Positions 11,056 to 55,265 are shown, counted from the first letter of the whole stretch. The stretch: DNA of 63,959 nt, filler included, from Thermodesulfobacteriota bacterium (GCA_036381125.1; 5 parts of 5 records of this genome joined end to end with filler, not necessarily neighbours in it), one strand, 5' to 3'. The notes: a model not told the origin generated them from the letters alone. Numbers and translations: made by a program.

Positions 11056-11155
11056 NNNNNNNNNNNNNNNNNNNNNNNNNNNNNNNNNNNNNNNNNNNNT
11101 TAATTAATTAANNNNNNNNNNNNNNNNNNNNNNNNNNNNNNNNNNNNNNNNNNNN
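11056..11155. other. Artificial contig linker
   Basis: N44-TTAATTAATTAA-N44 (stops in all six frames), identical at four sites. Confidence 0.98.
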
Positions 11156-23173: not shown

Positions 23174-23273
23174 NNNNNNNNNNNNNNNNNNNNNNNNNNN
23201 NNNNNNNNNNNNNNNNNTTAATTAATTAANNNNNNNNNNNNNNNNNNNNNNNNNNNNNNNNNNNNNNNNNNNN
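23174..23273. other. Artificial contig linker
   Basis: N44-TTAATTAATTAA-N44. Confidence 0.98.
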
Positions 23274-28440: not shown

Positions 28441-28782
28441 CTAGGAGAGGTCGCGCTTGAGCGTCTCGAACTCCTCGCGCGTGATCTCGCCCGACGCGTG
28501 CCGGCGCCTGGCGATGTCGAGGGGCGTCTCGCGGTGCGGGGCGCGGCCCTGGGCCGCGAGCCAGCGGATCCCGTAGATCAGCGCCGCGATCACGACGATC
28601 CAGAAGAGGAGCATCACGAGGCCCATCCCGATGCCCCACATGCCCCACATGCCTGGCATGCCCCAGGGCCCGTCGGCGTAGGGACCGTAGTTCGGCTGGG
28701 CGGCGGCGGCGGCCGGCATCAGGCCGCCGATCCCGCCGAGAATCGCTCCGGCCGCTGACCCGGTTCGACGCATCCCGATCAT
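28441..28782 (-). CDS. SHOCT-domain membrane protein with Met/Gly/Trp-rich segment
   Basis: WGMPGMWGMWGIGMG, TM helix, ETPLDIARRRHASGEITREEFE. Confidence 0.82.
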   Translation of the reverse strand: MIGMRRTGSAAGAILGGIGGLMPAAAAAQPNYGPYADGPWGMPGMWGMWGIGMGLVMLLFWIVVIAALIYGIRWLAAQGRAPHRETPLDIARRRHASGEITREEFETLKRDLS

Positions 28783-29082
28783 GGCTCATTGTGACATTGC
28801 CGGGTCGGTTCTGGAACCGTAGCCGGACCCGGGAGCGGCTCCCTGGCAACCGGCTCCTTGCCCCGACCGGTCGAGGTCAGGGCCTTGCTGTCCACCCGGC
28901 TCGGCGGGACCGTGTCGACGGCTGCCCGGCGCCGGCGAGCGGCGGTATGCCCGGGCGTTCGACCCCGGTTCGAGGCGGCCTCGAGCCCGGAGGGGCCGCC
29001 GAAGCTCCGGCCGGCCCGCACGGCGGGAACCACGCGGCGCTCCCTGTTACCATGACGGCCGGTCACACGAGGAGGGCAGGGA

Positions 29083-29592
29083 GTGACTCGCATCGGAAAG
29101 TCGCGGCGCGGCCGCGGGCGCACGTCGGGCGCCAGCCGGCGCCGGCTCCTCATCGCGGGCGCCGGGCTCGTCGCCGGGGGCGGGCTCGTCGCCGGCCTCT
29201 GGCCCTGGGAACCCGCCCGGACGTCGCACGCCTACACGCTCGCGCCGGAGTCGGTGCTCGACGCGCGGATCCGCCGCGCCCCGGCCAGGGTCCGCGAGGC
29301 CTACCGGTTCGCGGTGGCCAACCGCGAGCTGCTCAACAAGTTCCCCTGCTTCTGCGGCTGCTTCGAGCAGGACGGCCATCGCGGCAACGCCGACTGCTAC
29401 GTCGAGGACATCCGTCCCGACGGCTCGGTCGTGTTCGACTACATGAGCCTCGGCTGAGGGATCTGCATCGACATCACGCGTGACGTGATGCGCCTCCTCG
29501 ACAAAGGGACCCCGCTCAGGGAGATCCGGGCGTACATCGACGGCCGGTACGGGAGCTACGGCCCCTCGACGCCCACGCCGCCCGTCGAGTAA
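29083..29592 (+). CDS. PCYCGC-motif family protein with in-frame UGA (putative selenoprotein, UxxC), 169 aa
   Basis: FPCFCGC...GHRGNADCY...FDYMSLG-TGA(29455-29457)-GICIDITRDVMRLLDKGTPLREIRAYIDGRYGSYGPSTPTPPVE-TAA; family-typical C-terminus continues past the TGA. Confidence 0.82.
29472..29490 (+). promoter_or_regulatory. Putative bacterial SECIS hairpin
   Basis: Perfect stem CATCACG-[CGTGA]-CGTGATG starting 14 nt after the UGA. Confidence 0.68.
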
Positions 29593-29619
29593 CGGCCCTC
29601 GGGCCGCCCGGGCCCTCCC

Positions 29620-29733
29620 GGCCATCCTGCGGCACGACTCGGCGCAGCGCCGGCAGGTGTCCGCGCAGACGCGGCCGTGCAGCGCCGACCCGCGCAGCAT
29701 GAAGTCGGTGCTCGTCAGCCAGATCTGTGCACA
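29620..29733 (-). pseudogene. Four-helix-bundle copper-storage (Csp/DUF326-like) gene remnant
   Basis: CAQIWLTSTDFMLRGSALHGRVCADTCRRCAESCRRMA; no start codon and shorter than the family. Confidence 0.65.
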
Positions 29734-29961
29734 GAGTCGTCCTCCTGCGGTGAGCGGCGCCGGGTGGTAGGCGCCGCCCCCACGGCGCTGCACCGCGCGG
29801 GCCCCGATGTCGATTCCGGAGGGACCCGATCGACGTGACGGTAGAGGCGCCCCGCGCGGTCCGGACGGTGAACGCGCAGGGCTCGCGGAGCCGAGGCACG
29901 TCCACTCGGGCCGATCGTGCGATCGGCCCAGGCGATATGAGCGATCCGCAATGGAGGCACC

Positions 29962-33874: not shown

Positions 33875-33938
33875 AACGCGTGCGCGTTGCCGGTCAGGTC
33901 GTCGGGGCCAGGCAGCCGGGGTGCCGCCGGAGGACGGA

Positions 33939-34940
33939 GTGCCGCCGAATACCGCGCGCTGGCTCCTGCTGATCGCCTCGCTCCCGCCGACCCCGTCGCG
34001 GCACCGGGTGCGCGTCTGGCGCATGCTCAGAAAGTGGGGCGCGCTCGGCCTGCGCAAGTCGGTGTACGTGCTGCCCTACAGCAAGGACCACTACGAGTCC
34101 TTCCAGTGGATCGCCCAGGAGATCCAGAGCGTCGGGGGCGAGGCGACCTTCCTCAAGGTCGCCAAGGTGGAGAACCTCCCCGACGAGGCGCTGATTCGCC
34201 TGTTCCGGGACGCGCGGCGCGAAGACTACGGAGCCCTGGCTGCCGAGGTGCGCGAGGCACTCGACGACCTCGACAAGACGCCGCCGGCCCGTCCCGGGGC
34301 TCGCGTGGAACCGGCGAACGCCCGGCTGGCCGAGCTGACGGCGCGCTTCGAGGCCATCGCCGAGATCGACTTCTTCGACGCACCGGGGCGCGCCGCCGTG
34401 GTGAGGGCGCTCGACCGGCTCCGCCGGCGGCTCGTCGCGCTCGGCGTCGCCGGCGGCGGCGAGGAGGCGACTGCGTTACGGTTGAACCGGACGGACTACC
34501 AGGGGCAGACGTGGGTGACACGCGAACGCCCCTTCGTCGACCGGCTGGCCTCGGCGTGGCTCATCCGTCGCTTCATCGACCCCGCCGCACGGTTCGGCTT
34601 CATCGGCTCCGACGAGCAGCCGCCAGCCGGGGCGATCCCCTTCGATGTCCACGGCGCCGCGCTCGGCCACCGCGGCGAGGACTGCACCTTCGAAACGCTC
34701 GTCAAGGCATTCGGCCTGGAGGCCGACGTGCGGCTCCGCTACCTCGCGGAACTGGTGCACGAGGCCGACCTCAAGGACGAGAAATTCGCGCATGCCGAGA
34801 CGCGGGGGCTCGTCTTCGTGCTCACGGCGCTGCGGCGCACGATCGCCGACGATCACCAGCTGCTCGAAGAGGGCATGACCCTCTTCGAGCGGCTCTACGA
34901 GTCCCTCGAAGACGCTCGCCCGACGGCTCGGGGCGAGTGA
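33939..34940 (+). CDS. chrB: Chromate resistance regulator ChrB
   Basis: WLLLIASLP...RVRVWR, IDFF, WVTRERPFVDRLASAWLIRRFID, HRGEDCTFE; start 33921 or 33939. Confidence 0.88.
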   Translation: MPPNTARWLLLIASLPPTPSRHRVRVWRMLRKWGALGLRKSVYVLPYSKDHYESFQWIAQEIQSVGGEATFLKVAKVENLPDEALIRLFRDARREDYGALAAEVREALDDLDKTPPARPGARVEPANARLAELTARFEAIAEIDFFDAPGRAAVVRALDRLRRRLVALGVAGGGEEATALRLNRTDYQGQTWVTRERPFVDRLASAWLIRRFIDPAARFGFIGSDEQPPAGAIPFDVHGAALGHRGEDCTFETLVKAFGLEADVRLRYLAELVHEADLKDEKFAHAETRGLVFVLTALRRTIADDHQLLEEGMTLFERLYESLEDARPTARGE

Positions 34941-34952
34941 GGAGGCACGCCC

Positions 34953-35375
34953 ATGAAGTGGGTGACCCGGATGCGGCCGAAGGTCGACCGCGTGGCATGT
35001 CCCTGGCTCATTCGCCGCTTCGTCGACCCCGAGGCGGAGTTCCTCTACGTCCCGCCCGACGAGGTCACGGCGGTGGCGGCGCGGGAAGGGGCCATCCCGT
35101 TCGACGTGCCGGGTGTCGAGCTCGGCCACCACGGTGACCGGTGCAGCTTCGACGCGATCATCGAGAAGTATGCCCTCACCGAGCCGGCCCTCGAACGGCT
35201 GGCCCAGATCGTCCGGGGCGCTGACACCGACGCGCGACATCTCGCGCCCGAGGCGGCGGGGCTCGAGGCGATCGCCGAGGGATTCCGCCTCGTCTACCAG
35301 GACGACCACGAGCTGCTCGAGCGTGAGCTGACGGTCTACGACGCGCTCTACGCGTACTGCCGGGCGGCGCGATGA
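34953..35375 (+). CDS. Stand-alone ChrB C-terminal domain protein (ChrF-like)
   Basis: MKWVTRMRPKVDRVACPWLIRRFVDPEAEF...HHGDRCSFD. Confidence 0.88.
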   Translation: MKWVTRMRPKVDRVACPWLIRRFVDPEAEFLYVPPDEVTAVAAREGAIPFDVPGVELGHHGDRCSFDAIIEKYALTEPALERLAQIVRGADTDARHLAPEAAGLEAIAEGFRLVYQDDHELLERELTVYDALYAYCRAAR

Positions 35376-36338
35376 GCGCGGTCAGGACGATCCTGTTCCT
35401 CTGCCCGGAATGGGGCTCGCGTTCATCCTGCCCTCGTTCCTCATGGTGGTCGCCCCGTCCTGGCTTTACGTGCGGTTCGGCGGCCTGTGGTGAATGCAGG
35501 CGCTCTTCTACGGCATCGGCGCGGGCGTCATTGGCATCGTCGCGATCGCCGCGTACAGGCTCGCCCGGCCGACCAATCGACGTGATCCGTTGCTCTGGGG
35601 CATCTTCGTGGCACTCGCCGTCATCACGGTCCGGGCAGAGGCAGAGTTGGGCGAGTTCTTCATCCTCGCCGGGCTCATCGTCCTTCTCGCCCGGGCCACG
35701 CCGTCCTGGGTCAAGCGGTTGGCGACCTTCCGCGTGATATTGCCGGCCCCGCTCGCGTTGACCCTTGCGCCGGCCGCGCCGACCGGCGCCGTTCCGACGG
35801 AGGGCCTCCTGCTCCAGATCCTGCTCTTCTTGGCCGAGGCCGGCGCCTTCGTCTTCGGCAGCGGCCCGCCATCGTCGCCTTCCTCCATCAGGGCGTCGTG
35901 CAGCAGTACGGGTGGCTCACCGAGCACCAGTTCCTCGATGCCGTCGCGGTCGCCATGATCGCGCCGGGGCCTGTCGTCATAACGGTCGCCTTCATCGGCT
36001 ACCTCGTCGCCGGTCTCACCGGGTCGGTCGTTGCCGCGCTCGGGATCTTCTCGCCGGTCTGCCTGTTCACGGTCGTCTCGGCCCCCTGGTTCCGGCGGCG
36101 TCGCGACAGCCCGCAACTCAAGGCGTTCGTCCAGGGGGCCACCGCGGCGACGACGGGCGCGATCAGCGGGGCGGTGATCATCCTCGCCGGTCGCGCGATC
36201 ATCGACCTTCCGACCGCGGCGATCGCGCTCGGTAGCTTGGCGCTGCTGTGGCGGCTCAAGGTGCCTGAGCCGCTCCTGGTCCAGGCGGCGGGCGCGGCCG
36301 GACTGGTGCTGTGGCCGCTGATACACGGAGCCGGGTAG
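35372..36338 (+). pseudogene. chrA: Chromate transporter ChrA pseudogene fused to an ArsC/LMWP-like 5' fragment
   Basis: MSAVRTILFLCP, then AFILPSF...GGLW*MQALFYG, AGAFVFGSG (frameshift), QFLDAVAVAMIAPGPVVITVAFIGY. Confidence 0.8.
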
Positions 36339-37951: not shown

Positions 37952-38051
37952 NNNNNNNNNNNNNNNNNNNNNNNNNNNNNNNNNNNNNNNNNNNNTTAAT
38001 TAATTAANNNNNNNNNNNNNNNNNNNNNNNNNNNNNNNNNNNNNNNNNNNN
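37952..38051. other. Artificial contig linker
   Basis: N44-TTAATTAATTAA-N44. Confidence 0.98.
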
Positions 38052-55165: not shown

Positions 55166-55265
55166 NNNNNNNNNNNNNNNNNNNNNNNNNNNNNNNNNNN
55201 NNNNNNNNNTTAATTAATTAANNNNNNNNNNNNNNNNNNNNNNNNNNNNNNNNNNNNNNNNNNNN
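55166..55265. other. Artificial contig linker
   Basis: N44-TTAATTAATTAA-N44. Confidence 0.98.

Follow-up and report, generated by a model that had tools for sequence, protein, structure and literature searches.

A probable selenocysteine codon in a PCYCGC-family gene of a soil bacterium

Whether an in-frame TGA ends a gene or is decoded within it is the question raised by a short reading frame in a 63,959-nucleotide stretch of DNA (the window, filler included) assigned to a Thermodesulfobacteriota bacterium (GCA_036381125.1). The frame opens with GTG at 29083, runs for 124 codons and is closed by TGA at 29455-29457; beyond this codon the same frame stays open for 44 further codons (GICIDITRDVM...PTPPVE) until TAA at 29590-29592. 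A first-pass annotation made from the sequence alone had described this arrangement and proposed a candidate UxxC selenoprotein, and the sequence bears out its coordinates. Comparison of the locus with its relatives makes it very probable that 29083-29592 is one intact, 169-residue selenoprotein gene of the PCYCGC family in which UGA is decoded as selenocysteine (Sec). The homologues P0002 and P0003 start at the position equivalent to GTG 29083. The features of the gene, as predicted under this reading, are the following.

29070-29075, plus strand: AGGAGG, Shine-Dalgarno-like, 7 nt 5' of the GTG start, read off the sequence.
29083-29592, plus strand: full putative selenoprotein coding sequence (PF13798/PCYCGC), 169 codons plus TAA, with UGA-Sec as codon 125.
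29134-29208, plus strand: twin-arginine-like segment, S18-RRR-LL followed by a hydrophobic stretch to W42, assigned by motif only.
29344-29361, plus strand: PCFCGC (P88, C89, C91, G92, C93), the motif that marks the family, unchanged in all 39 aligned sequences.
29455-29457, plus strand: UGA as putative selenocysteine U125, first residue of U-G-I-C (29455-29466), from the comparison of TGA and Cys at this column.
29458-29589, plus strand: the 44 post-Sec codons, with C128 and modelled helices 126-140 and 145-159; GC3 0.95, pLDDT 94-98, I131 and G160 invariant.
29472-29490, plus strand: upper hairpin of the predicted SECIS, within the codons for D-I-T-R-D-V-M; 7-bp stem, 5-nt loop CGUGA.
29590-29592, plus strand: TAA, the likely true stop, where the ends of homologues coincide.

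The composition of the frame is informative in a window whose overall G+C is 72%. GC3 is 0.96 before the TGA, 0.95 from TGA to TAA and 0.61 past the TAA. Twenty-eight coding-like frames in the window are closed by TGA, and an in-frame coding signal continues past this codon at 29455 and 34938 only; at TGA 34938 the downstream signal is that of the next gene, which begins four codons on.

The read-through product matches PF13798 (PCYCGC) with 100.3 bits against a cut-off of 25 (E 1.2e-28). The match covers residues 58-166 and profile positions 42-151 of 153, and therefore spans the TGA. The Cys set of the family is present: PCFCGC, with an F for Y that several homologues share, then C105, C128 and, where the family has a Cys, U125. 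A second model, NCBIfam NF041379 (OS_HP4_CYCXC, CYCXC family (seleno)protein), is matched over positions 12-89 of 90 with 59.3 bits, below its cut-off of 90, and the protein is therefore filed under the wider PF13798 and not under the equivalog; this cut-off was reached in none of the 43 related genomes, the best score being 76. Selenocysteine in this family has been predicted before. A 2026 review lists the PF13798 CYCXC family protein/OS_HP4, with the motif UxxC, as a predicted selenoprotein (PMC13188914), and a 2022 review places 'Hypothetical protein OS_HP4', also UxxC, among predicted families (PMC9312934). In the main text of the 2007 Olavius-symbiont study only OS_HP1-3 are named, OS_HP4 presumably being in the supplements. 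The published UxxC must correspond to columns 125 and 128, because no other invariant Cys pair has i,i+3 spacing. The novelty implied by the first-pass annotation, which did not count the protein among known families, thus does not stand: PF13798/OS_HP4 appears in two reviews, and NCBI holds a (seleno)protein model for a sister subfamily. Judged by these sequence comparisons, the window protein is a divergent new member of a catalogued family of predicted selenoproteins and represents a separate, longer subfamily. It shares with NF041379/OS_HP4 the Pfam domain, homology over nearly the whole model and the prediction of Sec, and differs from it in length (about 145-175 residues as against a 90-position model), in an N-terminal export or anchor segment, and in its soil and sludge origin as opposed to a marine symbiont. 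A full-text literature search found no functional study of PCYCGC/OS_HP4, and the PCYCGC papers that it returned draw no link to selenium.

The distribution of TGA and Cys codons among relatives bears most directly on the question. A scan of one genome per prokaryote species gave 43 related loci. At the column aligned with the window TGA, 14 of these carry TGA (L001, L003, L005, L007, L014, L017, L021, L022, L026, L028, L029, L030, L034, L035) and 27 carry Cys (TGC or TGT); two gave no call, L025 having no family motif in frame and L043 having a broken frame. Record titles assign the TGA forms to Chloroflexota, Binatia, Rokubacteria, Eisenbacteria, Gemmatimonadota, Acidoferrum and a MAG labelled Thermodesulfobacteriota. 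All TGA forms conserve, at the protein level, the approximately 44 codons 3' of the TGA, and their ends match those of the Cys forms. Among 43 homologues from the protein database, whose classes at the Sec column were counted by eye, 25 have as their last residue the one immediately preceding this column (...MSLG, ...MSYG, ...HALG), 15 have Cys there and three have W, R or G (P0017, P0019, P0042). The W and G could be TGA translated under an alternative code by the gene caller. In P0042 the N-terminal part is also out of frame. The proposal that TGA occupies the first Cys of a second CxxC, and that Cys and TGA would alternate at this column, is therefore corroborated both by the 43 loci and by the 43 database proteins. 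A search of the 43 genomes with an HMM allowing read-through of stops returned 16 matches with exactly one internal TGA, including extra paralogues in G009, G040 and G043.

About four changes of the Sec label (bootstrap range 3-5) are required on a maximum-likelihood tree built from 39 sequences, and well-supported branches force only one of them. The window gene clusters with L003 and L007 (support 97/72). The tree leaves out L001 (cut by a contig end), L013 (a duplicate of L011), L034 (a captured piece without a start codon), and L025 and L043, which were unscored at the Sec column.

The same 39 sequences show which residues are constant in the family. The invariant columns are E72, A73, Y74, F76, A77, A79, P88, C89, C91, G92 and C93, and further H99, C105, U/C125, C128, I131 and G160; they include six Cys/Sec (C89, C91, C93, C105, U/C125, C128) and one His (H99). 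An AlphaFold2 model of the window protein built from this alignment has a mean pLDDT of 86, with values above 90 over residues 50-169. It places helices at 126-140 and 145-159 after the Sec, with U125 directly before the first of them. According to this model, a product ending at residue 124 would lose the invariant C128 and two helices.

If the UGA is decoded as Sec, a signal in the RNA is expected nearby. The sequence CATCACG (29472-29478), a loop CGTGA (29479-29483) and CGTGATG (29484-29490) form the perfect 7-bp hairpin that had been noticed at the outset, starting 14 nt past the TGA and with G at loop position 2. The published bSECIS model has a loop of 3-9 nt and a stem of 4-16 bp (PMC13188914, Fig. 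2 legend), a G among the first two loop nucleotides, in most cases with G or U after it (PMC13188914), a distance of 16-37 nt from UGA to loop, and a minimum free energy no higher than -7.5 kcal/mol (PMC13188914). The window hairpin agrees with all four published criteria: its 7-bp stem carries a loop of 5 nt in which the G at position 2 precedes a U, the spacing is 21 nt, and the hairpin alone has -8.8 kcal/mol. Rfam at gathering thresholds gave no match anywhere in the window. Taken singly the sequence folds no better than chance, 126 of 200 shuffles folding at least as well (z = 0.42), and because of this the case for Sec rests on the relatives.

Among these the hairpin is found at the same offset in all 14 assessable TGA forms (L001 being too short for hairpin scoring), with seven pairs in 13 and six in one, and with the loop CGUGA or CGGGA; a contiguous 7-pair stem occurs in 6 of 27 Cys forms. 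The suggestion of a bacterial SECIS just 3' of the UGA thus gains from both the published model and the comparison. In the TGA forms (n = 14), 99.0% of cells are in a standard pair, a value reached by 1 of 500 shuffles, as against 77.2% in the Cys forms (n = 27), reached by 328 of 500 shuffles with a shuffle mean of 77.3%; with the 3' arm slid, the best pairing value is 65% for TGA forms and 51.9% for Cys forms, all of this among sequences that are mutually related. In L030 two stem pairs are changed on both sides (AUCGUG...CACGAU), so that ITRDVM becomes IVRDTM and the stem is kept; both compensatory pairs in the comparison come from this locus alone. Some Cys forms fold because I-T-x-D-V-M itself encodes AUCAC/GUGAU, and the stem is thus partly forced by the amino-acid motif ITxDVM. 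A SECIS lying within ITRDVM, with pairing maintained in L030 despite a Thr/Val swap, would clearly exemplify codons that serve RNA and protein constraints at once. The IVRDTM variant is seen as well in two Cys-form proteins, P0004 and P0012 (CGICIDIVRDTM), which suggests either a recent Sec-to-Cys conversion or a hairpin kept after conversion. Many other contigs match the window in short pieces that accumulate on 29455-29496, as would fit a UGA and SECIS segment conserved at the nucleotide level in other organisms.

Decoding of UGA 29455-29457 would be carried out by SelB and tRNA-Sec, directed by the hairpin at 29472-29490, and would require an organism equipped for it. Of the 43 related genomes, 35 have a SelB (TIGR00475) above the curated cut-off: 11 of 14 with the TGA form, 22 of 27 with the Cys form and both of those whose locus was unscored. 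The TGA-form genomes without a clean SelB are G005 (a split match), G009 and G010 (none). In these three and in G001, tRNA-Sec scores 68.8-72.6 bits (the gathering score being 47), ARAGORN reports a tRNA-SeC with anticodon TCA, SelA is above its cut-off, and SelD is above its cut-off with one in-frame TGA; selenophosphate synthetase is therefore itself a selenoprotein in these lineages. The expectation that TGA would be confined to genomes with the Sec machinery holds in part: the machinery is present in TGA-form genomes, but its presence does not separate the two forms, because 22 of 27 Cys-form genomes have SelB too. Within the window no tRNA was found, and no Sec genes were seen among its annotated genes. 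The Sec competence of the window's organism would rest on G001, a relative that matches the window in four syntenic pieces at 92-93% DNA identity and has tRNA-Sec, SelA, SelB and SelD; in its copy of the gene the TGA and the first part of the hairpin are preserved, up to the point where the contig ends.

Several other explanations of the TGA must be weighed against decoding as Sec. The first-pass annotation had itself named a nonsense mutation as a real alternative, in which TGC or TGT changed to TGA and left a 124-residue truncation in a decaying neighbourhood. Decay is indeed evident nearby, with a DUF326 fragment directly 3' of the gene on the other strand and, 6 kb away, a fragment of a chromate transporter, and within the family L043 and P0042 look like broken copies; however, the decay does not reach the selenoprotein gene. 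The TGA recurs in 14 of 43 loci, marks the point where 25 of the 43 proteins from the database stop, is always accompanied by the hairpin and is kept in the 92%-identical relative, while the 44 codons 3' of it retain a GC3 of 0.95, are conserved and are needed for the modelled fold. On these comparative data a pseudogene is very unlikely. A sequencing or assembly error hiding a true TGC or TGT is conceivable in a metagenome-type assembly that contains eight 44-base runs of N, but its probability is practically negligible. The window stretch occurs in soil and sludge metagenomes, and contigs from three studies (X1, record 1; X2, records 11 and 12; X3, record 19) span 29455-29457 with no other letter at these positions among the differences listed, although nearby synonymous differences are present; X1 may be the window's source sample. 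These assemblies, to which G001 adds an independent TGA, speak against the possibility that raw data would restore a Cys codon.

Sec insertion in bacteria competes with termination, and it could be argued that the UGA acts mainly as a stop, the 124-residue product being functional and read-through rare or conditional on selenium. Gene callers and GenBank do annotate the 124-residue form, for example P0002. Against this, the shorter form would be deprived of C128, which is invariant, and of two helices from a domain that is compact and modelled with confidence, and the codons after the TGA are under clear coding constraint; termination as the main outcome has only a slim prospect. Under the preferred reading, decoding of UGA as Sec, the gene has been mis-called as a 124-residue protein both here and in public records (P0002 is entered at 124 aa). 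Reading the UGA as Sec restores the 169-residue protein and indicates selenocysteine use by a soil organism. This is an annotation fix, not a discovery, and the picture of bacterial Sec decoding is unchanged by it.

The role of the protein is approached through its neighbours. In relatives the PCYCGC gene heads a same-strand operon, in which the following genes occur.

Downstream, same strand, 28 loci: cupredoxin of about 155 residues, with Cx3Cx3Hx2M (CuA ligand motif) in 26 of 28.
Downstream, same strand, 26 loci: Fer4_5/NapH-MauN-like membrane polyferredoxin of about 460 residues.
Downstream, same strand: cupredoxin-cytochrome c fusion, with the CuA motif in 21 of 21 and CxxCH in 19 of 21.
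Downstream, same strand, often: DUF1573 protein, NCBIfam OS_HP2 family (seleno)protein, 71 bits against a cut-off of 100.
L009 4743-5342, L008 6944-7441 and other Chloroflexota loci: DUF1573/OS_HP2-like genes in the PCYCGC operon.

In addition, P0017 is a natural fusion of cytochrome c and PCYCGC. This linkage to CuA and cytochrome genes points to a role in thiol/selenol redox or Cu(I) handling in the maturation of envelope copper and haem proteins, and the likely function of the family is that of an envelope thiol/selenol redox or copper-handling factor. In such a scheme the protein would be exported or membrane-anchored by its twin-arginine-like N-terminus, the six Cys/Sec and His99 would form a site for thiol/selenol redox or for handling a metal, probably copper, and U125-x-x-C128 would lie within that site at the N-terminus of a helix; the protein would then most likely help to mature or protect envelope metalloproteins. 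A role specifically in copper or CuA maturation is plausible, though we hold it with less than even confidence. Nearly evenly poised is the possibility of a selenoprotein with another task, such as Fe-S or zinc binding, general envelope thiol-disulfide reduction, or metal(loid) detoxification. The CuA operon is absent beside the window gene, L003, L007 and L034. The window gene has as neighbours genes for SHOCT, DUF1232, the DUF326 fragment, a ferritin-like protein, two ChrB and the chromate-transporter fragment; L003 has SHOCT and LMWPc, and L007 has a chromate transporter, PadR, cation efflux, glyoxalase and LMWPc, the last of which we take to be of arsenate-reductase type. The neighbours in the window's subclade (chromate transporter, PadR, cation efflux, LMWPc, ChrB, SHOCT) are thus not CuA genes. 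A twin-arginine-type signal would moreover suit a cofactor loaded in the cytoplasm, the best, insignificant PDB matches are small ferredoxins and CcmH, of which CcmH recurs in fold searches, and a Bacillales PCYCGC lipoprotein, left without an assigned function in the lipoproteome paper that lists it, adjoins an Fe3+-binding protein (PMC13068155). On the other side, every PDB and fold match is below significance, and the strongest and most widely conserved linkage is with CuA-motif cupredoxins. In the case of the window copy, a CuA-specific role and a wider one in metal stress are about equally likely.

The known CuA assembly factors Sco/SenC, TlpA and PCuAC are Cys-based proteins of the envelope, encoded near CuA genes, which reduce the CuA cysteines and deliver copper. 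By functional analogy only, PCYCGC proteins, whose gene in relatives heads an operon with two CuA-motif cupredoxins, might be the missing factor that assembles CuA centres, and perhaps c-type haem sites, in the envelope of Chloroflexota and of several phyla from soil: a Cys6-His protein whose U/CxxC would reduce apo-protein cysteines or hand over Cu(I), with the Tat-type subclade redeployed into metal-stress islands. This fuller proposal is speculative and, on balance, unlikely. In contrast to the likeness in operon context, the profile and fold matches of the window protein include no sequence or fold relation to Sco/SenC, TlpA or PCuAC, and the window copy has no adjacent CuA gene. If the proposal were true, PCYCGC would be the first selenocysteine-using maturation factor for a copper centre, equivalent to Sco, TlpA or PCuAC with an unrelated fold. 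The linkage with CuA cupredoxin, NapH/MauN-type polyferredoxin, cytochrome c and OS_HP2/DUF1573 provides a testable hypothesis for the function of the family.

DUF1573/OS_HP2 (PF07610, NF041425) is itself an orphan family of predicted selenoproteins from the same 2007 Olavius-symbiont study. Because an OS_HP2-like gene shares the operon with the OS_HP4-like PCYCGC gene in several Chloroflexota loci, two orphan predicted selenoprotein families are genetically linked. The two differ in that DUF1573 has an unrelated Ig-like fold and is absent from the window. No TGA forms occur among the DUF1573 neighbours of these loci, all copies being Cys forms (TCGCT/SCGCT).

The N-terminus and the fold offer some further clues. 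The SRRRLL motif and hydrophobic segment described at the outset are present, as a motif only, and the stretch that follows SRRRLL consists of Gly, Ala, Leu and Val; similar motifs occur in the clade-mates L003 (TRRTFL) and L007 (NRRAFL). The TAT_signal HMM gave no match to the window protein at E<=0.01, and no cleavage site is obvious. Most homologues have an L-x-x-C lipoprotein signal; in the window protein there is no lipobox, no Cys preceding C89. Judged by its sequence, the N-terminus is either an export signal or a membrane anchor.

A PDB sequence search found no solved relative (best E 0.015), the insignificant matches being small ferredoxins (E 0.015-0.021) and CcmH (E 0.046). Foldseek against the PDB gave nothing at E<=0.001, and the best Z of a wide VIA fold search, 4.8, is well inside the range common for such matches. 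CcmH is the recurring weak lead: besides its profile match (E 0.046) it is ranked first by Foldseek (E 1.6) and is matched by VIA with Z 4.7 and an rmsd of 3.6 over 75 residues at 21% identity. CcmH (2hl7, 2kw0), a periplasmic protein of cytochrome c maturation, is like the window protein small, helical and, as predicted for the latter, extracytoplasmic, and has a CxxC; in the model of the window protein the U/CxxC lies just before a helix. Unlike the window protein, CcmH has neither the PCYCGC motif nor the additional Cys and His, and with all matches below significance no membership is claimed.

Some further features of the window were noted in passing. The DUF326 fragment (29596-29778, minus strand) is the C-terminal part of a Cys-rich four-helix-bundle protein of copper-binding type and converges on the selenoprotein gene; its weak Pfam match of 21 bits, with no intact N-terminal portion seen in the frame, suggests the remnant of a gene. 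The chromate-transporter fragment (35494-35955 and 35898-36338, plus strand; Pfam 21.6 bits, profile positions 104-162 only) follows two ChrB-domain genes (33921-34937 and 34953-35372), and the ChrA gene is possibly frameshifted or decayed. The 44-base runs of N, which are masked or withheld sequence, form four pairs with 12 bases between the members of each, at the regular-looking sites 11056-11155, 23174-23273, 37952-38051 and 55166-55265. Both in the window (28444-28782, minus strand) and in L003 (5589-5957, plus strand), the gene directly upstream of the selenoprotein gene encodes a small membrane protein with a SHOCT domain, and the SHOCT protein may be a recurrent partner in the twin-arginine subclade.
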